DNA of 64,000 bases from an uncultured Methanosarcinales archaeon (GCA_964561995.1 CAZLQZ010000006.1:8789-72788); one strand, 5' to 3'. Counted from the first letter of the stretch, positions 1 through 57,578 are shown. Program-made: numbers and translations. The notes: generated by a model not told the origin, from the sequence alone.

Positions 1-247
1 TATTTGTTTTAAGATTATTTTTTTCTTTTAATTCTTTCCAGTTATATATTTCGCAATTAGAAATGAATTTGTTTTCTAAGGGTTGAGGTATATGATTTAT
101 AATTGCATGAAGATTGTGACCTATGCCATTTTTTCCTTTAACAAAAGTATTAGAACTATCTTTCCCTCTATATTTTATTAGCTTTAATCCTGCATCTATT
201 CTTTTTTTTACGTCCTTAGCATTGAACAATCCAATTATTCCGCACAT
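1..247 (-). CDS. asnB: Asparagine synthase (glutamine-hydrolysing), N-terminal fragment running off the left edge
   Basis: My translation from ATG (245-247, minus): MCGIIGLFNAKDVKKRIDAGLKLIKYRGKD...GIGHNLHAI...NCEIYNWKEL. It has the N-terminal Cys of class-II (Ntn) amidotransferases and a GEIYN-like motif. TATA-like TTTTATATA lies at 270-278. Confidence 0.6.
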   Translation of the reverse strand, partial: MCGIIGLFNAKDVKKRIDAGLKLIKYRGKDSSNTFVKGKNGIGHNLHAIINHIPQPLENKFISNCEIYNWKELKEKNNLKTN

Positions 248-283
248 GATTAGAAATTATAGGTTAGAGTATATAAAAGTTAG

Positions 284-1126
284 CTAATTATTAAATATTC
301 TAAAATCTTCTTTTGTGTAACCTTTATTTGAAATTTTAATTTTCAATTTTCTTTGTGCTTTAATATTTAATAATCTTGGGTATTCTCCTCTTGTACCCAT
401 TGCTATTCCAATATCTTCAAAGATATGGACTTCATATCCATTAAAACCATTTCTTCTTTTTACAATCTCTTTTAATTTTGGATCTAGTTCTTCAACTGCT
501 TCATTTACCAATTCATCAATCATTTTTCGTTCTAAACTTGTTTTTATGGCAAGATCTTTTTCAAGAACAAAAGCAAGGTCAGATTCACAATCTGGGCTAA
601 GGTAGGCATCCAAAGATACAATTTCTCTAAGTCTTTCAAAATATAAATATTTTCGAATTAGTTTTTCATTTTTGTTAAGTGCTTTTGAAATCTCGATTGG
701 TTCAGGATTTCTTTCAAGTTTATTTTTTAATTCATCACTAGTTTTTTGAATTGAGTTAATTGTTTCTTGAGCTGTAACTGGAAATCTAATTGTTGTGCCA
801 TAATTATTAATTGCTCTTCTAATTTTGTGTTTAATCCAATCGCCAGCGTAACCAGAAAATCTACCTTTGTTTGGGTTGAATGTTTTTGCTGCGTGCATTA
901 GTCCCATGTTTCCTTCTTGAACTAAATCTTCATAATCTAAACCTCTATCTACAAAGAAATTGGCAATTTTTTGAACCAATCTCAAATTACATTCTACTAA
1001 TGTATCTATTGCAAGTTCATTTCCTTGTACAGATTTAGTTCCCAATTCGAATTCTTCTTTTTTTGATAGTCTGGGAAATTGTTTAATTTCTCTATCATAT
1101 TGTGTTCTCTGTCTGTAATTAGTCAT
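284..1126 (-). CDS. Sigma-70 family protein, paralog 1 (most diverged; region 4 degenerate)
   Basis: Region 2 motif DLVQEGNMGLMHAAKTFNPNKGRFSGYAGDWIKHKIRRAI, region 1.2-like NLRLVQKIANFF, region 3 start TTIRFPVTAQE. The track start is TTG at 1135; I prefer ATG at 1126 (MTNYRQ) because it restores the same 26-nt spacing to the upstream motif as in the other paralogs. Confidence 0.8.
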   Translation of the reverse strand: MTNYRQRTQYDREIKQFPRLSKKEEFELGTKSVQGNELAIDTLVECNLRLVQKIANFFVDRGLDYEDLVQEGNMGLMHAAKTFNPNKGRFSGYAGDWIKHKIRRAINNYGTTIRFPVTAQETINSIQKTSDELKNKLERNPEPIEISKALNKNEKLIRKYLYFERLREIVSLDAYLSPDCESDLAFVLEKDLAIKTSLERKMIDELVNEAVEELDPKLKEIVKRRNGFNGYEVHIFEDIGIAMGTRGEYPRLLNIKAQRKLKIKISNKGYTKEDFRIFNN

Positions 1127-1151
1127 TAGAAACAAAGGAAATTTTAGTTGA

Positions 1152-1168
1152 TTTTAAAAGATTTTGAC
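1152..1168 (-). promoter_or_regulatory. Conserved promoter motif (TATA-like TTTTAAAA plus GATTTTGAC) upstream of sigma paralog 1
   Basis: Plus-strand TTTTAAAAGATTTTGAC. The TATA-like octamer ends 26 nt from the ATG at 1126. The same motif lies at 2099-2115 and, with one substitution, at 3050-3066. Confidence 0.55.
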
Positions 1169-1212
1169 TTTTTTTATTGTTTTTTAGTAGAAATTTGTTT
1201 TATATGTTGTAA

Positions 1213-2073
1213 TTAATTATTAAATAAACGTAAATCAAAATTTGAATAACCTTTTTTTTCTAATTCTTTTTTTATTACTTTTTCTGATTCTTTTTTTATT
1301 TGTCTTATTCTTTCTCTAGTTTTTCCAATAACTTTGGCTATATCTTCTAATATTTTGGGTTTATTGCCATTTAGTCCATATTTTAAAGTTATAATTATTT
1401 TTTGTCTTGAATCTAATTTTTCATTTATAATTTGATAAAGTTCTGTTACTATGTTTTGTCTTTCTTTATCTGGGTTTTGATCTGTGTCAATTGTCTTTTC
1501 GTCTTTAATAACTTCTTCTAAACAATCTATGTCCTCTTCTGTTATTGGAGCATCAAGAGATGCAGTTTTTAATAATTTTTCATTAATCAAACTTTCACCA
1601 GCTTGTTTTGGACTATATCTTGTATCCTTTGAAACTTCTTGATGTGTTGGTTCTCTTCCTAATTCATTTTTTAATCTAATATATTCTGCATGAATTTTGG
1701 TAATTTTTCCATATGCGCTAATTGGTATTCTTATTGTTCTGCTTTGATTACAAAGTCCCAGTTTCATTTGTTGTTTAATTTGCCAGCAAGCATAAGTTGA
1801 AAATTTAGCACCTTTAGTGGGATCAAATCTTTTTGCAGCTTCCATTAATCCTATGTTTCCTTCTTGTACTAAATCGTAATAAGGAAGTCCTAATTCTGTA
1901 AATCCGTGGGCTAATTCCATAACTAGTCTTAAATTAGAAATAACTAATTTGTCCATTGCTTCTTTATTTCCTTTTTGAACTAATTTTCCAAGAGTTATTT
2001 CTTCTTCTCTTTTTAATAAAGGATATTTTCTGGCTAATGTTGTATATGTTGTATTTTTTTCATATTTTCTCAT
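1213..2073 (-). CDS. Sigma-70 family protein, paralog 2 (RpoD/SigA-like, no region 1.1)
   Basis: NLRLVMELAHGF (1.2/2.1), DLVQEGNIGLMEAAKRFDPTKGAKFSTYACWQIKQQM (2.2-2.4), SRTIRIPISAY (3.0), LEDIAKVIGKTRERIRQIKKESEKVIKKEL (4.2), C-terminal DLRLFNN resembling the RpoD tail. ATG at 2073 preferred over TTG at 2082. Confidence 0.9.
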   Translation of the reverse strand: MRKYEKNTTYTTLARKYPLLKREEEITLGKLVQKGNKEAMDKLVISNLRLVMELAHGFTELGLPYYDLVQEGNIGLMEAAKRFDPTKGAKFSTYACWQIKQQMKLGLCNQSRTIRIPISAYGKITKIHAEYIRLKNELGREPTHQEVSKDTRYSPKQAGESLINEKLLKTASLDAPITEEDIDCLEEVIKDEKTIDTDQNPDKERQNIVTELYQIINEKLDSRQKIIITLKYGLNGNKPKILEDIAKVIGKTRERIRQIKKESEKVIKKELEKKGYSNFDLRLFNN

Positions 2074-2098
2074 AAGAACCAAAAGAAATTTAGTTAGC

Positions 2099-2115
2099 TT
2101 TTAAAAGATTTTGAC
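2099..2115 (-). promoter_or_regulatory. Conserved promoter motif upstream of sigma paralog 2
   Basis: TTTTAAAAGATTTTGAC, 26 nt from the ATG at 2073. The whole ~90-bp intergenic region is visibly homologous to 1127-1212. Confidence 0.55.
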
Positions 2116-2163
2116 CGGTTTTATTATTTTTTAGTAAAAATCTCTGTAGTATGGTGTAATTAA

Positions 2164-3024
2164 TTAATTATTAAATGAACGCAAATCTAAATTGGAATAA
2201 CCTTTTTTTTCTAATTCTTTTTTTATTATTTTTTCTGCTTCTATTTGTATTTGTCTCGCTCTTTCTCCTGTTTTTTTAATTGCTTTACCAATTAATTCTA
2301 GTTTTTTTGGTTTACTTCCATTAAGTCCGTATCTTAATGTGATTACTTTTTTTTGTGTTGGATTTAATTGGTCTAAAATATTGTAAGTTATTTTTACTAG
2401 TCTTTTTTTATCTCCATTAGGATAAAAATAAAGATTTTTATTACTTTCATCTTCTACAACATCTTCTAAATTATCTCCTTCCATGTCTAACCTTATTGCT
2501 GCATCTAAAGATCTAGTTGTAATCAGTTTTGAAGAAAATAAATATATTCTAACTTGTTTTTCTTTTAATTTTGTTTCATTAGATACTTCTTGAATTGTTG
2601 GATTTCTACCTAATTTATCTTGTAAAGTATTGTATGTTCGGGTAATTTTTGAAATTTTTTCATATGCTGTAACTGGTATTCTAATTGTTCGACTTTGATT
2701 TCCTAAATATCGTAAAATCTTTTGTTTAATCCACCAGGCAGAATAATTGGAAAATTTACTTCCTTTTTTGGGATCATATTTTTTGCTTGCAATTATTAAA
2801 CCTTTGTTTCCTTCTTGAATTAAATCTTCAGAATCTACACCTAGGAATTTGTATTCCTTGGCTATTTGTCTTACAAGTCTTAAATTACTTACTACTAATT
2901 TTTGGGCAGCTTTTTCATCTCCTTGTTGAACTCTTTCTCCAAGGCTAACTTCCTCTTTTATTGTTAATAAAGGAAATTTTTCAATGTCTCTGTCGTATAA
3001 AAATCTTTTACTGTATCTGTCCAT
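2164..3024 (-). CDS. Sigma-70 family protein, paralog 3 (RpoD/SigA-like, no region 1.1)
   Basis: NLRLVRQIAKEY, DLIQEGNKGLIIASKKYDPKKGSKFSNYSAWWIKQKI (keeps the WW pair of region 2.3/2.4), SRTIRIPVTAY, LELIGKAIKKTGERARQIQIEAEKIIKKEL, C-terminal DLRSFNN. Confidence 0.9.
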   Translation of the reverse strand: MDRYSKRFLYDRDIEKFPLLTIKEEVSLGERVQQGDEKAAQKLVVSNLRLVRQIAKEYKFLGVDSEDLIQEGNKGLIIASKKYDPKKGSKFSNYSAWWIKQKILRYLGNQSRTIRIPVTAYEKISKITRTYNTLQDKLGRNPTIQEVSNETKLKEKQVRIYLFSSKLITTRSLDAAIRLDMEGDNLEDVVEDESNKNLYFYPNGDKKRLVKITYNILDQLNPTQKKVITLRYGLNGSKPKKLELIGKAIKKTGERARQIQIEAEKIIKKELEKKGYSNLDLRSFNN

Positions 3025-3049
3025 AGGAAATATAAAGAATTGAGATTAA

Positions 3050-3066
3050 TTTTAAAAGCTTTTGAC
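3050..3066 (-). promoter_or_regulatory. Conserved promoter motif upstream of sigma paralog 3
   Basis: TTTTAAAAGCTTTTGAC, 26 nt from the ATG at 3024. The stop codon of the upstream TrmB-like gene (3072) lies only 5 nt away. Confidence 0.5.
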
Positions 3067-3071
3067 TAGAA

Positions 3072-3785
3072 TTATTCTTTATCTGCCATCTTCCACATTA
3101 CATCAAAATAACTTTTAAATGCTTTTGCGGCAGCTTTATTTTCAATAACAATTGCTTCGGGAACGTCTGTCCAAATTACAATTGCAATTTTATCACCATA
3201 AATATTTGTTACTGCTGGGCTTTCGGCAACATCTAGAAATCTGTGTTCGGAATATCTCGAATCTTCCATTTCTTTTCTACCTTTTCTGCAAATTAATTTT
3301 GTTTTAAAATTATTTTCTCTTTGCATTCTCATAAATTGTAATGCGAATTCCGGTATTTTTTTAGAAAATTGTCCTTCACTTCCATAAACAAAATTATCTT
3401 TTTTTGAATTGGCCATGTCTCTAAATATCTGTTTAACTCCTTTAATTCCTTTAAATAATCTTACTTGGCCTTCAATTTTATTAGCTTTATGTCTCGCACT
3501 TAATTCTGGTAAAATTTCTTTAACTTCTGATTCTTGTTCTTTAATATAATCTAGTAATCTTTTTGGACCTGTTGCTTGAAACCATTTAACTTTTCCAATT
3601 AAAACATAACTAACTAATGCTTTTTCAATTAGTGATTTTAATGAATTGTAGCACGAACTTCTGTCAACTTCTGCAAGTTTTGAAATCTTTCCTGCTTTTT
3701 GAGAGCCATGGTCGTTTAATGCCAAATAAACTTTAATCTCATTTGGACTAAAACCCATGTTTGATAGAACTTTTTCAACTTTCAT
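3072..3785 (-). CDS. TrmB-family transcriptional regulator
   Basis: N-terminal winged helix typical of TrmB: LSNMGFSPNEIKVYLALNDHGSQKAGKISKLAEVDRSSCYNSLKSLIEKALVSYV, followed by a ~130-aa C-terminal domain. Confidence 0.75.
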   Translation of the reverse strand: MKVEKVLSNMGFSPNEIKVYLALNDHGSQKAGKISKLAEVDRSSCYNSLKSLIEKALVSYVLIGKVKWFQATGPKRLLDYIKEQESEVKEILPELSARHKANKIEGQVRLFKGIKGVKQIFRDMANSKKDNFVYGSEGQFSKKIPEFALQFMRMQRENNFKTKLICRKGRKEMEDSRYSEHRFLDVAESPAVTNIYGDKIAIVIWTDVPEAIVIENKAAAKAFKSYFDVMWKMADKE

Positions 3786-3847
3786 AATTTTATGAAAATT
3801 TGGTGTTATTTAAATATTGTGTTGTTGTTTATTCTACAACGGATAGA

Positions 3848-4675
3848 TTATGAAATTCTTAATTCATTAATTTGTTTGAATCTATTGTAGTAGTCATTAC
3901 TAGTTTTGTATAATTTCCAAAATACTATTATTAACCATTCTAGCCATTCTTTGTCATAAATTTCATAGTAAAGTCTTATGTCTTGAGGAAGTTCCTTTTC
4001 TTGATACATTTCTTTTAGTTCTTGAGTATTAAATCTTGCAAATGACTCATCAACTATGTATCCACGTAAAGGTTGGTAGTGATGTTTAATTTCTATAAAT
4101 TCGGGATATTTTGTTAACAAAGGAATCATTTTTTCAATGTTACTTAATGAAGCAATATTAATTCTGCATAAGATTTTAATCATTACTTTTCTTTTTAACA
4201 ACTCTTCCAGAATTTGGGACATTTTTTTATCATCTTCTATTTTATTTATAAAAGAAAGATTTCCTGAAAATATGTAAACTACATTTTCTGCTCTTCTTAG
4301 AGCTTCACCCATTTTATAGGTTTTGGCGTTTAATTTATCACTAAAAGATTTTTTATTTTTGTCTGGAATGTACTGGAAAACTTCTAAAAAATCAAATTCT
4401 TCTTTTTTTCTTGATGTTTTAATTTGATTGAATAAGTCTTCTTTAATATCGTCGCTAATTAATGCTTCTGAATAATTATAATAAACTACTTTTACTGCTC
4501 CGGGTGTATTTTTTCTAAATACTTTAATATTTATTAATCCTGTTTGTTCTTTTATTTTTTTTGTATATGAGTCTGCAGTAACCCAGCTTTTTTTAATTAA
4601 TTTGGATATCTCTTGAACTGTTTTTGGTTCATTTTTTACAAATTTTACAATTTTTTCTACTATTTTTGCTTCCAT
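3848..4675 (-). CDS. Putative winged-helix DNA-binding protein with uncharacterised C-terminal domain
   Basis: N-terminus IVKFVKNEPKTVQEISKLIKKSWVTADSYTKKIKEQTGLINIKVF looks like a wHTH. The rest has no motif I recognise. Confidence 0.35.
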   Translation of the reverse strand: MEAKIVEKIVKFVKNEPKTVQEISKLIKKSWVTADSYTKKIKEQTGLINIKVFRKNTPGAVKVVYYNYSEALISDDIKEDLFNQIKTSRKKEEFDFLEVFQYIPDKNKKSFSDKLNAKTYKMGEALRRAENVVYIFSGNLSFINKIEDDKKMSQILEELLKRKVMIKILCRINIASLSNIEKMIPLLTKYPEFIEIKHHYQPLRGYIVDESFARFNTQELKEMYQEKELPQDIRLYYEIYDKEWLEWLIIVFWKLYKTSNDYYNRFKQINELRIS

Positions 4676-4777
4676 TATATGCTCTTAAGTTATTCTTATT
4701 TATATGTTTTTCTAAAACTAAGTTTTAATTTAGTTAAACTAACTGTTAAATCAATTAAAACACTATAGGGTATTACA

Positions 4778-5314
4778 ATGAAACAATATATATTAACCGG
4801 AGGACCTAGTTCAGGAAAAACAACCTTAATTGGGATGTTGAGTGACGACTTTCAAACAGTTCCAGAAGCAGCAGAATTAGTAATTCAAGAACAACAAACA
4901 AAAGGGATTGAAATACCGCAAATTCAACCAAATTTTCAGGGTTTGGTATATCAAAAACAAAAACAACAATTAGAAGATTTACCTTATGCACCTATCGCTA
5001 TTTTTGATAGAAGTATTGCAGATGGATTAGCTTATTGTGCTCTTTTTGATAAACCTGTACCAGATGGTTTAGCTAGTGAAGATTTAACTAATAGATTCGA
5101 AGAAGTTTTTTTAATTGAAAATCTTGGTTTTGCACAGGATAATGGAATAAGATATGAAGATAATGACTTATCTATTAAAATCCAAGAACAATTATTTAAA
5201 ACATATAGGGAACTTGGTTATAATCCCATAAGAGTGCCTGCATTTTGTGATTTATCAAAAGATGATAGTATTGCACAAAGAATGAAAATCATCTATGAGC
5301 AAATAAAATGCTAA
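4778..5314 (+). CDS. P-loop NTPase (AAA_28 / NadR-kinase-like)
   Basis: Walker A ILTGGPSSGKTTL at the N-terminus, small size (178 aa), FDRS motif further on. The stop overlaps the start of the next gene (ATGCTAA). Confidence 0.6.
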   Translation: MKQYILTGGPSSGKTTLIGMLSDDFQTVPEAAELVIQEQQTKGIEIPQIQPNFQGLVYQKQKQQLEDLPYAPIAIFDRSIADGLAYCALFDKPVPDGLASEDLTNRFEEVFLIENLGFAQDNGIRYEDNDLSIKIQEQLFKTYRELGYNPIRVPAFCDLSKDDSIAQRMKIIYEQIKC

Positions 5315-6672
5315 CTTTTGGAATGATTAAAGAAGTGGATTTTTATTTTTTTAATTCTTTAATGTCTCAAAATAAATTAAAAGAATTTGAAATAGATAAA
5401 TCGGTTGAAAGTTTTGTTAAAAAGTATGGTTCTTTGTTAAAAGGATATGATACTTTCACATACAAATTAAGGGAAAGATTGTATGATGTTTGTGGTGATT
5501 TAGTTTTGGAAAATAAATTAAAACTAACAAATGTAATTCCTTTATCTTCTGGGGGAAGTTTAGATTACGCTTTATTTGATGATTATATTAAAAATTCAAG
5601 GTCTAATTTAGAGTCTGCATTAAAGTCAAATAAAAATATAGTTTTTGTAATGGGTCATAAAAATCCTGATACTGATGCAGTTATTAGTTCAATGTTTGAA
5701 GCTTGGAGAAATCATTTAGAAAATCCCTTGACAGTTTATGTTCCAATTGTTCAAAGTAAAAGACTTCCTGATGAAGTTACAGAATTAATACCGAGTTTGT
5801 CTGATTATGTACTATTAACTAATGATCCTTTGTATGAGTTGGCAAAACAATCAAGTTTAATAAGATGGATTTCAGTCGATCAAAATGAAGAATCTGAAGT
5901 TCAGAAATCTTTTGTTAGTATTATAGATCATCATTTACCTTCAAAAATTGCTAAAAATCAAAACATTCCAAAAACATTAGAATTGCTTGGTTCTTGTGCA
6001 GCTTTGGTAACTAGAAAATATTTAGGGATGGGTTTTTCTTTAGATGAGAAACTTGCCAAAATTCTTTATGGGGCTTCTTTAATGGATACTGAAAACAAAA
6101 CTATTTCTAAAATGACTAAAAAAGATGTTTTAATAATGGATTATTTGAAAAAAACTTCAAGAATAAAAGACGATAATGAATTTTATAGTAAATTAATGGG
6201 CAGATTATTAAATACTGATGATGCTGATAATTTATTTAATCGAGATTATAAAGATAATTTTGGATTTGGTTTTGCAGTGGCTAAAGTAAAAAATTGTTTT
6301 AGCAATAATGGTGAAGTTAAAAAACAAAGTTTAGTAAATAGATTATATTCTCTTGCAAATAATAATAATAAAGAAAAAGATTTCCCATTAACTTTGGTTA
6401 AGATAACTGATTATTGTAATGATAATATGACTGTTAATAGAGAAAGAATAGTTGTGCTTTTTAATGTGGATGTAGGTGATGAATTTAAGAAAACGATTAA
6501 AATGACTTTAGAAGGTACTATTCACTTTGAATTTCAGGAAGATGAATTAAATTCTGAATTGTCTTATGTTGATTTATGTGGGACTGGTTTACAATTGTCA
6601 AGAAAAAAAATGGTTCCTATTTTACAACCTTTTATTGGTCTTTCTATGGGTAATGATTTTCATTATGTTTAA
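5308..6672 (+). CDS. DHH-family phosphoesterase (family-II pyrophosphatase-like, DHH + DHHA2-like)
   Basis: VMGHKNPDTDAVISS, SVDQNE and IIDHHLP motifs. N-terminal ~100-aa extension; the start may be an internal ATG (MSQNKL). Confidence 0.7.
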   Translation: MLTFGMIKEVDFYFFNSLMSQNKLKEFEIDKSVESFVKKYGSLLKGYDTFTYKLRERLYDVCGDLVLENKLKLTNVIPLSSGGSLDYALFDDYIKNSRSNLESALKSNKNIVFVMGHKNPDTDAVISSMFEAWRNHLENPLTVYVPIVQSKRLPDEVTELIPSLSDYVLLTNDPLYELAKQSSLIRWISVDQNEESEVQKSFVSIIDHHLPSKIAKNQNIPKTLELLGSCAALVTRKYLGMGFSLDEKLAKILYGASLMDTENKTISKMTKKDVLIMDYLKKTSRIKDDNEFYSKLMGRLLNTDDADNLFNRDYKDNFGFGFAVAKVKNCFSNNGEVKKQSLVNRLYSLANNNNKEKDFPLTLVKITDYCNDNMTVNRERIVVLFNVDVGDEFKKTIKMTLEGTIHFEFQEDELNSELSYVDLCGTGLQLSRKKMVPILQPFIGLSMGNDFHYV

Positions 6673-16357: not shown

Positions 16358-16384
16358 TTACGGTTGGTTGACATCCAACCGTAA
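16358..16384 (-). other. Perfect 10-bp stem / 7-nt loop hairpin in the dnaK-dnaJ spacer
   Basis: TTACGGTTGG-TTGACAT-CCAACCGTAA. It is GC-rich relative to its surroundings, and an adjacent GTAAG/CTTAC pairing would compete with it. Confidence 0.5.
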
Positions 16385-18662: not shown

Positions 18663-19168
18663 TTCTTGCTTACTTTTACTCTTGAACATCTAATAACTTT
18701 ACCGCTGAGTTTGTATCCTTTTTGTAACTCGTCTAAAATAGTTCCTTCAGGTTTATCTGATTCTTCTGTAATTACAGCTTCATGTAATTCTGGATTGAAA
18801 TTTTTGTTATCTTTAATTGGTTCAAGTCCTTCATTTTCTAAAGTTGCTAAAAATTGTGCAAAGATCATTTCCATCCCTTTGATGAATTCTTCTTTGTTTT
18901 CTTTATGTTTTAATGCTAATTCGAACATGTCTAAAACTGGTAAAAGGCTAGTAATAACTTCTTTTTTAAGATATATTTTTAGATCTTTTTTTTCTTCTTC
19001 AGTTCTTCTTTTAAAGTTTGCAAAGTCTGCTTGAGTTGATTGTAATAGGTATGTAAGTTCTTGAATTCTTTCTTCTGAACTCATTTTTATTTCTTTTTTT
19101 TCTTCTTTACAGGTTTTAACTGCTTCTTTGATTTCAGATTTACAAGTTTTTTGTTTTTCTTTTGACAT
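18659..19168 (-). CDS. grpE: Nucleotide exchange factor GrpE
   Basis: ADFANFKRRTEEE, LLPVLDMFELAL and HEAV motifs, with the typical length after a charged N-terminus. Confidence 0.9.
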   Translation of the reverse strand: MSKEKQKTCKSEIKEAVKTCKEEKKEIKMSSEERIQELTYLLQSTQADFANFKRRTEEEKKDLKIYLKKEVITSLLPVLDMFELALKHKENKEEFIKGMEMIFAQFLATLENEGLEPIKDNKNFNPELHEAVITEESDKPEGTILDELQKGYKLSGKVIRCSRVKVSKK

Positions 19169-19194: not shown

Positions 19195-19211
19195 GTTGAC
19201 CTTAAGTCAAC
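19195..19211 (-). promoter_or_regulatory. Inverted repeat GTTGAC-N5-GTCAAC between a TATA-like box (19237-19244) and the grpE start
   Basis: Read directly: GTTGACCTTAAGTCAAC. It sits about 25-40 nt downstream of TTTATAAA, where an archaeal transcription start would fall. Confidence 0.45.
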
Positions 19212-55034: not shown

Positions 55035-56273
55035 TTAGTATTTACCTAAAGATATTTGTTTTTCTTTAATTTTAAATTTTTTAATGTTGACTTTTCCTTT
55101 AAAAACTGGCTCTCCGTAAACTCCATCGTATCCTGGTTTAACTTTTATTTCTCCATTTCTGTTTTTCATTATTATTTTTGCAATATCTGGATTTATTTTC
55201 ATTAAATCTTTTTTTGGAGTATTTAATAAAATTTCATATTCTGTTTTTTTGTTAACAAATTGATTATACATTTCCCAACATTTTTTTGTTGTAATGCCCA
55301 TCTTATAAAATTTTGAAATTAATTCAGATAAGGGCATTAATTTGTAAACTTTTTTTGCATTTTTAGGTATGTAACCTTCTTCTCTGTCTGCTAATTCTTC
55401 AACTCTATTCTCAACACCAATAACCACTTTTTTCCCACAATTAGGACACAGTCCTCCTAATTCTGTTGTTTGTTTAGGAGATAAAATCACTTCACATTTT
55501 CTATGTCCGTCCCAATGATATTTTCCGTAAGCTGGATCAACTTCAATTGTTCCATGAATTGTATTATTTTTTAGTTGTTTTTGAACATTATCGTATGATA
55601 TTTTTCCATTAAACAATGTTGCCTCTCTTCCAATTCTCCAAGGCCAAAAAGAATGTAAATCTGAAAATGAAACTAATGTATATTTATCTAATTGTGATAA
55701 ACGCCAGTTCATTTCTGGGTCTGATGAAATGCCAGTTTCTAACGCATGAATTTTTTTAGTTTGATCTTGAAAACATTCTTTTACAGTATTAAATCCGGAT
55801 TTAGAACCAAACATACTAAACCATGGTGTCCAAATGTGTGCTGGAATTATTTCAACTTTAGGATTTATTTCAGTTAGTTTTTCAACAAATTCGGGACATG
55901 GTATTTTGAATATTGGTCTTCCATCATAATCAACTCTTCCCTTTGATTTAAACCATTCAGTAATTTGGTCTGCAGTTCCTAAATCTGGTGCAAGAATAAC
56001 ATTGTGTACTCTTCTTCCTTTTTCATTATCTGTATAAATTAAACTTATTTCAGTTTGTAATAAAAATGGAAAATCTGTTGAAGTTTTCATTACTCCATTA
56101 TCCTCTTTTAATTCTGATTTTATTTCTTGAATCCACTCAGGATGTGTGAAATCTCCAGTACCTAATAATTGAACACCTTTTAATCTTGCATATTTTTCAA
56201 GATTTTTTATAGTTAAATTTTTACTACATCCTCTTGAGAATCTTCCATGTATGTGTAAATCTGCAATAAACAT
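55035..56273 (-). CDS. PHP-domain nuclease with zinc ribbon (Endonuclease Q / COG1379-like)
   Basis: FIADLHIHGRFSRGCSKN at the N-terminus, HIWTPW, and an internal CPNCGKK zinc ribbon. Confidence 0.7.
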   Translation of the reverse strand: MFIADLHIHGRFSRGCSKNLTIKNLEKYARLKGVQLLGTGDFTHPEWIQEIKSELKEDNGVMKTSTDFPFLLQTEISLIYTDNEKGRRVHNVILAPDLGTADQITEWFKSKGRVDYDGRPIFKIPCPEFVEKLTEINPKVEIIPAHIWTPWFSMFGSKSGFNTVKECFQDQTKKIHALETGISSDPEMNWRLSQLDKYTLVSFSDLHSFWPWRIGREATLFNGKISYDNVQKQLKNNTIHGTIEVDPAYGKYHWDGHRKCEVILSPKQTTELGGLCPNCGKKVVIGVENRVEELADREEGYIPKNAKKVYKLMPLSELISKFYKMGITTKKCWEMYNQFVNKKTEYEILLNTPKKDLMKINPDIAKIIMKNRNGEIKVKPGYDGVYGEPVFKGKVNIKKFKIKEKQISLGKY

Positions 56274-56327
56274 AATTAGAATTAATTTTTTTTCTTTTTA
56301 TGTTTTGTTGTTTTCTTTTTATTTTTT

Positions 56328-57398
56328 CTATATTTCATCCAAAAATGATTCTACTTCGTGTCTTTCAAATTGGGATAGATGTGTTTTGAAAGGTTCTTTT
56401 GTTTTTGGATTAAGTAATTGGCAGTTAAACATTTCAACAACATCATAAACAAAATTATTTTCCATGAGTTTTACTGCTAATTTTTTATCTGAAACAACTT
56501 CCCCTAACATTTTTTTAAATTTTTGTTCAAAAAGTTGAAATAAAAAGTCTCTTTTCTCTTGATTATTTAAGTTTGTATAGTCATTTTGATTACAATATCC
56601 AAATCTTCTAATTAATTCTAAAGCAACATTAGTCTCTACTATGTTTCTTGAATAATGTTCTTCAACGTAAATTAATGCTCCTATTTTATCTTTTATTATA
56701 ACTCGCATTCTTTTTTTATCGCTTATTTGTAATGCTTTTGTATGATATAATCCAAATAGATGTCCAACAAAATCTCTTTTTTCTGGTTCATTAAGGTTAT
56801 CAAAATTATGAGAATTACAAAATCTATGTTTTATCATTGACGTAATTATTTTATCGAGTGACTTACCTTTATAATAATCTCTTTCTAATAATTGAATTGC
56901 ATCAAGTGAATTATCATCCTCTTGTCGATAAGCTTCTGCTATGTTTATCCAATCTTCGATTTCTTTTGGATCTTCATCTACTTGATTTGGTTCATATTCA
57001 TCTAAATTTTCAAAATAATTTGGTTCAGATTCATAATGAGGTATATAATTTTGTTTAAAAACTTCACCAGTCCATTCATAAAAACTGGGCCAATAATAAT
57101 CTTCGTCCATATATTCATCATTATACGCATTTACCCAGTACAAAACTTCTGTATCGTCTTGGGTTGTAACGAAATGACCTGAACTTTCACCTTCAAAAGC
57201 TTTTTTGCCATCTGATTTCGCGTCTCTAAGATATTTTTGTCTTGTTTCTTCCCAAGTCTCTTCGTGTTTTACTATTTCATCTAATCTTACTTTTACTGTT
57301 CCGTCAGTATATTGGGTACATTTAACAATATCAAAACCTAATTTAGCTTGTTCTAGTTTAAGATTATTATATTTAGAAGCTTGAATAACTATATACAT
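56328..57398 (-). CDS. Acidic hypothetical protein with an internal ~90-aa duplication
   Basis: IKHRFCNSHNFDNLNEPEKRDFVGHLFGLY... repeats as IRRFGYCNQNDYTNLNNQEKRDFLFQLFEQKF... Confidence 0.45.
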   Translation of the reverse strand: MYIVIQASKYNNLKLEQAKLGFDIVKCTQYTDGTVKVRLDEIVKHEETWEETRQKYLRDAKSDGKKAFEGESSGHFVTTQDDTEVLYWVNAYNDEYMDEDYYWPSFYEWTGEVFKQNYIPHYESEPNYFENLDEYEPNQVDEDPKEIEDWINIAEAYRQEDDNSLDAIQLLERDYYKGKSLDKIITSMIKHRFCNSHNFDNLNEPEKRDFVGHLFGLYHTKALQISDKKRMRVIIKDKIGALIYVEEHYSRNIVETNVALELIRRFGYCNQNDYTNLNNQEKRDFLFQLFEQKFKKMLGEVVSDKKLAVKLMENNFVYDVVEMFNCQLLNPKTKEPFKTHLSQFERHEVESFLDEI

Positions 57399-57414: not shown

Positions 57415-57578
57415 TATTTCTTTTTATGCTTTGTTGTTTTCTTTTTCTTATCCTTAATACATTTACAACAAATATTACCTTTACATGCTGTTATTCCAAA
57501 TACTGGGTGTGCAATAAATCTGTATCTCCATCCACTTAGTGGTACTCCACAATCTTTACATTTATTAATTTTTAACAT
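57415..57578 (-). pseudogene. Small zinc-ribbon ORF interrupted by a frame change
   Basis: ATG at 57578 gives MLKINKCKDCGVP then TAA. The -1 frame continues LSGWRYRFIAHPVFGITACKGNICCKCIKDKKKKTTKHKKK to the stop at 57415-57417. Joined, they give a CxxC...CCxC protein. Confidence 0.3.

Follow-up and report, generated by a model that had tools for sequence, protein, structure and literature searches.

What drives the expression of sigma factor genes of bacterial type that lie on an archaeal contig, and why does the same short sequence stand in front of each of them? The question is raised by a 64,000-nt stretch of DNA (the window) that is recorded as coming from an uncultured Methanosarcinales archaeon (GCA_964561995.1 CAZLQZ010000006.1:8789-72788). 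It contains three sigma-70-like open reading frames (ORFs), head to tail on the minus strand at 284-1126, 1213-2073 and 2164-3024, and each is preceded by one copy of a 17-mer. The initial annotation saw in this 17-mer an archaeal promoter together with a site, TTGAC, at which the sigma-like proteins might regulate their own genes. From the sequence, we consider it quite probable that the 17-mer is an ordinary archaeal core promoter, a B recognition element (BRE) plus a TATA box, which was repeated by paralogy and kept by selection.

The 17-mer and its spacing

The window has a G+C content of 27.6% and is the reverse complement of part of contig k141_242186 (98,299 nt) of ENA assembly ERZ27316330. 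We scanned 81.5 kb of this contig, which is the window extended by 8.9 kb on the left and 8.6 kb on the right. The 17-mer, TTTTAAAAG[A/C]TTTTGAC, has exactly three matches without mismatches, at 1152, 2099 and 3050, while 100 dinucleotide-preserving shuffles give an expectation of 0.01 +/- 0.10. A search that allowed two mismatches was uninformative (3 found, 1.5 expected). Two of the copies read TTTTAAAAGATTTTGAC (1152-1168 and 2099-2115) and the third reads TTTTAAAAGCTTTTGAC (3050-3066), and all of these positions and sequences had been annotated correctly. In gene orientation the element is GT-CAAAA-[T/G]C-TTTTAAAA, or base by base G-T-C-A-A-A-A-[T/G]-C-T-T-T-T-A-A-A-A, each copy standing before one sigma-like gene. 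Since the three copies are paralogous, the recurrence is far above chance and yet does not amount to three independent events.

The distance from motif to start codon is constant. The coordinate differences 1152-1126, 2099-2073 and 3050-3024 are all 26, i.e. 25 intervening nucleotides, and the fixed 26-nt spacing to the preferred ATGs claimed in the initial annotation therefore holds. There are in-frame TTG codons at 1135 and 2082, but with starts at these codons the TATA box would be followed by no more than 16 nt of spacer. The ATGs at 1126 and 2073 are the right starts.

Comparison with other promoters of the contig

We ran an expectation-maximization (EM) motif search on the 60 nt before the first ATG of the 58 genes that have at least 30 nt of intergenic space. 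The dominant motif in these upstream regions is c-R-A-A-A-n-c-TTTAWAAA. In 38 of the 58 regions, where random placement would give about 7, the distance from the end of its TATA part to the ATG is 21-25 nt, with 22 in 16 cases (the mode), 21 in 8, 23 in 7, 24 in 2 and 25 in 5. Genes of this promoter class have T at -1 in 25 of 38 cases and a Shine-Dalgarno (SD)-like motif in one of 38, compared with 9 of 14 operon-internal genes. Because T is so frequent at -1 and the SD motif so rare, we believe that these are leaderless archaeal promoters.

The sigma 17-mer occupies positions 1-17 of the position weight matrix (PWM). For paralog 1 it is the best PWM site upstream of the gene (1152-1168, minus strand, log-odds 9.1) and consists of GT, the BRE CAAAA (1166-1162), TC and the TATA box TTTTAAAA (1159-1152). 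The core promoters of paralog 2 (2099-2115, with the BRE at 2113-2109 and the TATA box at 2106-2099) and paralog 3 (3050-3066, with the BRE at 3064-3060 and the TATA box at 3057-3050) lie on the same strand and have log-odds of 8.9 and 8.8. In the 36 other promoters, the bases of the sigma element have frequencies of 1% (G), 39% (T), 41% (C), 55% (A), 55% (A), 84% (A) and 95% (A), after which come the TATA positions, and every base of the 17-mer but the first G is common among them. Within "GTC", the C corresponds to the cytosine of the BRE consensus, and TTTTAAAA is a perfect palindrome. Two independent promoters of this contig are on average alike at 10.0 of 17 positions, and one unrelated gene pair also has promoters that are identical at 16 of 17.

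In the arrangement known from archaea, an A-rich BRE adjoins the TATA box, the initiator is T(A/G) and mRNAs are leaderless (PMC7289017); in haloarchaea the BRE reads CGAAA, and in Haloferax leaderless transcripts make up 72% of the total (PMC4983044). We took as marks of an archaeal core promoter a 7-8 bp A/T-rich TATA box about 22-30 bp before the start, an adjoining A-rich BRE, a T(A/G) initiator and the absence of an SD sequence. In all three genes TTTTAAAA ends 25 nt before the ATG, the distance being taken to the ATG and not to a mapped start. CAAAA lies 2 nt upstream of the TATA box and fits the window consensus c-R-A-A-A. The TATA-to-ATG spacers on the minus strand are 25 nt long for paralog 1 (1127-1151), paralog 2 (2074-2098) and paralog 3 (3025-3049), with A at -1 in the first and T at -1 in the other two, and none contains an SD sequence. 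The spacer of paralog 2 is as long as that of paralog 1, although two 1-nt indels that compensate each other may separate them. For paralog 1, we predict a transcript with either no leader or one of 3 nt at most. The BRE and TATA box at leaderless distance that had been proposed are borne out by these features, by the same layout in 38 of the 58 upstream regions and by the archaeal markers on the contig.

The sigma promoters resemble the leaderless promoters of Sulfolobus and Haloferax (PMC7289017, PMC4983044) in having an A-rich BRE with a leading C (CGAAA in haloarchaea, CAAAA here), an adjoining 8-bp TATA box about 22-25 nt before the start, a T before the initiating A of the ATG, no SD sequence, and a layout that is common to most genes of the genome. 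They differ from them in a spacing that is 3 nt above the genomic mode, in the palindromic TATA box TTTTAAAA, in that the driven genes are of bacterial origin, and in that the start is here predicted from the sequence. That genes of bacterial origin have native promoters is expected for any transferred gene that is expressed.

The sigma-70 homologues, with their bacterial nearest relatives, could also be read as the sign of a bacterial contig, or the element as a bacterial-type promoter or terminator or as an RNA element. We give this next to no chance. The archaeal markers and the leaderless BRE/TATA layout extend across the whole contig, including the region beside the sigma genes. We scanned window positions 1-6000 for sigma-70-type promoters (-35 TTGACA and -10 TATAAT, 16-18 bp apart, in gene orientation), with shuffled sequence for comparison, and the element contains no such pair. 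Neither a stable nor a conserved fold is seen in the intergenic RNAs (z = +0.46, -1.39 and +0.68). With archaeal markers, no -35/-10 pair and no significant fold, we regard these readings as refuted.

In the mechanism that we propose for the ordinary core promoter, CAAAA would be the TFB-recognition element, with the 8-bp TATA box TTTTAAAA two bases further on. TBP and TFB would bind the 17-mer and position the archaeal RNA polymerase (RNAP), and transcription would start at the ATG or at most 3 nt before it, which would give leaderless mRNAs like those of most genes here. The near-identity of the copies would have three reasons: a single ancestral promoter, carried along when a gene that had been taken up once from bacteria was triplicated in tandem; a more recent homogenization of the block of about 200 nt that holds promoters 1 and 2, by gene conversion or unequal crossover; and purifying selection on the BRE and TATA box and on the TATA-to-ATG distance.

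Shared history and selection

The sigma paralogs are 38-51% identical in protein. Their four-fold degenerate sites are 51-57% identical, where about 44% is predicted from third-position base composition alone, and are thus close to saturation. By this measure of divergence the paralogs are old copies.

One part of the cluster looks younger. On the minus strand, 1127-1332 (some 120 nt from the 3' end of the coding sequence of paralog 2, then the intergenic region with promoter 1) and its partner 2074-2283 (some 120 nt from the 3' end of the coding sequence of paralog 3, then the intergenic region with promoter 2) are 82% identical over 211 columns, while most of the coding sequence is at about 60-66%. 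Between paralogs 2 and 3, the last 60-90 coding nucleotides are 91-93% identical and the first 660 are 66% identical. Along their full length, the two intergenic regions (1127-1212 and 2074-2163) share 77% identity, so the duplication history that the initial annotation read from them is real. This pattern points to a later homogenization of the block of about 200 nt, probably by gene conversion or unequal crossover. Because both promoters lie inside this block, promoters 1 and 2 are not independent witnesses.

The evidence for selection comes from promoter 3, which is an island. Its 17-mer matches the others at 16 of 17 positions, while its spacer matches at 13-14 of 25 and its upstream flank at 11 of 20 (52-56% for the flanks). 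At a baseline of 0.55, an identity of 16/17 has P ~6e-4. An island of this kind amid decayed flanks argues for purifying selection on the BRE and TATA box, and the argument that the third copy reveals selection on the 17-mer, already made in the initial annotation, is valid. Since 15 of the 17 bases are BRE and TATA box, core-promoter selection is enough to explain the conservation. For the two extra bases, G and T, chance conservation between promoter 3 and promoters 1/2 has P ~0.3.

It could still be that the 17-mer is a passive relic, identical through duplication and gene conversion alone and under no selection. Promoters 1 and 2 do lie in a block of 77-93% identity that takes in non-functional spacer and 3' coding sequence, and the left edge of homology at promoter 3 could be the boundary of the duplicated unit. 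We nevertheless find this improbable, as the spacer of promoter 3 has decayed to 52-56% identity while the adjoining 17-mer is 94% identical, and as the 17-mer falls on the promoter motif that is general in this genome, at the distance that is usual for it.

Another tandem paralog pair on this contig, at 55035-56273 and 56328-57398, also has promoters that are identical at 16 of 17 positions. These promoters (56293-56312 and 57419-57438) read AACAACAAA[AG]CATAAAAAGA and carry a box of unusual sequence, CATAAAAA, at 21-22 nt from the ATG. No Pfam family was found for the pair in the scans that we made, and an MJ0043_C match is on record for one of the two.

Peculiarities of the sigma promoters

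Several observations weigh against an ordinary core promoter under selection. With 25 nt, the spacing lies towards the upper limit of the genomic range (mode 22), none of the 36 other promoters has the leading G, and TTTTAAAA is a minority form of the TATA box (T 22% and A 25% at the two atypical positions), and there may thus be some sigma-specific constraint beyond the core promoter. The promoter distances are those to the ATG. Three protein searches found no orthologous loci for a promoter comparison, so that selection and shared history are not separable in this way. The 81.5 kb that we read also contain no genes for TBP, TFB or archaeal RNAP.

The leading G, at -9 relative to the TATA box, and the palindromic TTTTAAAA could mark a co-regulated promoter subclass, served by a particular TFB or TBP paralog, or an operator of the adjoining TrmB-like regulator. 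Both features are shared by the three sigma promoters and rare elsewhere, and the next gene upstream of the sigma trio, on the same strand, is of the TrmB family. We strongly doubt this explanation, because there are only two semi-independent observations, no further member of such a class was found in the 81.5 kb, and the dyad symmetry typical of TrmB sites is missing; we found no convincing dyad operator in the sigma promoters. An ordinary core promoter remains the reading that we prefer.

TTGAC and autoregulation

TTGAC is the sequence from which the initial annotation derived a -35-like site for autoregulation. One or more of the sigma-like proteins, most plausibly paralog 2, would bind the TTGAC that overlaps the BRE, compete or cooperate with TFB and so feed back on their own expression. 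This would fit with TTGAC[T/C] agreeing in 5 of 6 bases with the -35 consensus in each of the three promoters, with the TRERIRQI helix kept in paralog 2, and with the leading G absent from 36 of 36 other promoters; in the excerpt of Castelle et al. 2021 to which we refer (PMC8204110), moreover, no anti-sigma factor is known for these archaea.

On inspection, the likeness is mostly that of the BRE. Three of the five TTGAC bases are ordinary BRE (CAA), and 41% of the other promoters likewise have a C there. The bases outside the BRE and TATA box are G and T alone; the T is the commonest generic base at its position, and the conservation of the two is not significant (P ~0.3). As the C is consensus BRE and the G alone sets the sigma promoters apart, about two bases are all that the reading of TTGAC as a -35 core has to go on. 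The pentamer is on the strand opposite the genes and has no -10 partner. Matches to sigma-70-type promoters are not enriched in the scanned region (22 weak matches, compared with 31.3 +/- 6.0 in shuffles), and the 4.2 helices of paralogs 1 and 3 are damaged.

We also looked for further sites. The 17-mer and the looser pattern [AG]GTCA[AG]AAnnTTT occur in the 81.5 kb only at the three sigma promoters, and the suggestion that the 17-mer might mark a regulon thus found no further promoter there. None of the 23 other GTCAAAA heptamers in the same sequence has an adjoining TATA box. In metagenome contigs we scanned for GTCAAAANCTTTTAAAA-N24-26-ATG, which gave at least 119 loci; among the matches listed, comparison with the sigma proteins by phmmer and tblastn gave no sigma link, and most of the ATGs open short ORFs.

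Compared with the bacterial sigma-70 -35 element (TTGACA) and auto-regulated sigma genes, then, the locus has the TTGAC and a paralog 2 with the RERIRQ helix. It departs from them in having the pentamer on the wrong strand and overlapping the BRE, with no -10 partner, no bacterial RNAP core in evidence and no enrichment of sites. The promoter itself is ordinary, and autoregulation is unsupported by sequence statistics; we think it a distinctly poor prospect. A more elaborate form would have the sigma-like proteins domesticated as plain DNA-binding regulators that are no longer polymerase subunits, with the 4.2 helix of paralog 2 sitting on TTGAC at all three promoters and gating the access of TFB, in a feedback loop between a bacterial module and the archaeal machinery. 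We consider this very doubtful. Self-binding is speculation with a low prior, for which the sequence offers no positive evidence beyond two bases.

There is one further TTGAC-containing site of interest. The grpE promoter region (19195-19211, minus strand, ATG at 19168) contains a perfect dyad, GTTGAC-N5-GTCAAC, 22 nt downstream of a canonical CGAAACATTTATAAA BRE/TATA and at the predicted start of a leadered grpE-CxxCxxCC-dnaK operon, a CIRCE-like position. We rejected it as a second target of the sigma-like proteins, since the number of such dyads is that of chance (1 found, 1.39 expected in 81 kb).

The sigma-like proteins

The proteins are clearly of the sigma-70 type. PDB sigma A and RpoS match them with E down to 3e-46, and all four sigma domains are above the Pfam cut-off in paralogs 2 and 3, while in paralog 1 only regions 2 and 3 are. 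Paralog 1 (284-1126, minus strand, 280 residues) has a weak region 1.2 and regions 2 and 3. No region 4 was detected in it by Pfam, and by alignment it has lost the equivalents of W433 and Q437 as well as the 4.2 helix. Paralog 2 (1213-2073, minus strand, 286 residues) has regions 1.2-4. Its 4.2 helix TRERIRQI, which had been annotated as intact, is indeed so, as it aligns to GVTRERIRQIE of B. subtilis SigA; the equivalent of W434 is Q. Paralog 3 (2164-3024, minus strand, 286 residues) also has regions 1.2-4 and keeps the aromatics of regions 2.3/2.4 (Y, WW, Q), while its 4.2 helix reads TGERARQI. The residue labels Y430, W433, W434 and Q437 follow E. coli sigma-70 numbering.

No single paralog has the full recognition set (R-E-R-x-R-Q with Y430, W433, W434 and Q437). 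The decay of DNA recognition is complementary, in that paralog 3 keeps the aromatics and has the first R of 4.2 changed to G, paralog 2 keeps RERIRQ and has WQ, and paralog 1 has lost both. The core-binding motif DL(V/I)QEGNxGL is kept in all three.

After region 4.2, all three proteins share a C-terminal tail, KGY(S/T)xxD(L/F)RxFNN (284-330, 1213-1260 and 2164-2211), which the aligned bacterial homologues do not have. The DNA of the tail is 91-93% identical between paralogs 2 and 3. In a scan of one genome per GTDB species we found nothing related to the tail; the single match was an irrelevant Saprospiraceae locus.

With paralog 2, paralog 1 and a three-sequence profile as queries, the best homologues among 5.8 billion proteins are at most 46% identical. 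The nearest proteins are short primary-like sigma factors, and the few with a named source are mostly from Lentisphaeria or other bacteria of the PVC group. All five homologue contigs that we examined have bacterial contexts (Mfd, S21, S1, L21/L27 and DnaG-like genes). The paralogs are nearer to each other than to any homologue (51% for 2 and 3, 42% for 1 and 3), which fits with one bacterial acquisition followed by triplication in this lineage.

Sigma-70 genes have been described in DPANN archaea, especially Woesearchaeota (fam00359), and their presence there is therefore not new; the excerpt of Castelle et al. 2021 (PMC8204110) on which we draw adds that anti-sigma factors are absent and that the mechanism is unclear, and says nothing of promoters. 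As far as that excerpt goes, our genes are like those of fam00359 in lying on an archaeal contig among archaeal neighbors with no anti-sigma factor nearby, and unlike them in forming a tandem trio of paralogs, which are 38-51% identical and have a C-terminal tail of their own.

The sigma-70-like genes of this contig are neither contamination nor dead cargo, and they are integrated in the way that native genes are. Since each has a functional-looking native promoter, with the exact TATA-ATG distance apparently kept under purifying selection, the three paralogs are very probably expressed. This sharpens the question already posed in the literature of what role a bacterial initiation factor plays in a cell with an archaeal polymerase; the present analysis gives no answer to it.

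Host and neighboring genes

By its gene content the contig is archaeal. The Pfam archaeal markers on it are GatD_N, Gins51_C, S_layer_C, TrmB, L44e, ZPR1, diphthamide synthase and MJ0043_C, and there are no bacterial rpoA, rpoB or rpoC genes in the 81.5 kb. We call the host DPANN-like, a label that comes from base composition and gene content only and is no taxonomic placement. Each of the ten window proteins that we checked, DnaK, DnaJ and GatD among them, is alone in its cluster when about 15 billion sequences are clustered at 90% identity, which tells us that the lineage is very sparsely sampled. The sequence is contained in SRR8526173, and the contig itself turned up in a single ENA assembly and in Logan runs and nowhere else.

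Directly upstream of the sigma trio, on the minus strand, lies the gene of the TrmB-family regulator (3072-3785; Pfam PF01978, E = 4e-13), which has a TATA box of its own 21 nt before the ATG. Promoter 3 of the sigma genes begins 5 nt past the stop codon of this gene. Beyond it on the same strand, 3848-4675 encodes a second putative winged-helix regulator, of 275 residues and with weak Pfam hints only, and together with the TrmB-family gene and the sigma trio it makes up a five-gene block of DNA-binding proteins.

To the left of sigma paralog 1 is an asparagine-synthase/diphthamide-synthase fusion of 685 residues with its ATG at 250. The promoter of the fusion gene, in the region 251-290, is canonical (CTAACTTTTATATA, with 22 nt to the ATG), and its BRE-like part begins 1 nt after the stop codon of paralog 1 (284-286). 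As this promoter adjoins the stop codon, the sigma cluster has no room for a separate terminator. Elsewhere in the window, about 40 nt past the dnaK stop codon and within the 312-nt gap before dnaJ, there is a hairpin, GGTTGG-N7-CCAACC (16362-16380), which may be a 3' structure or a processing site.

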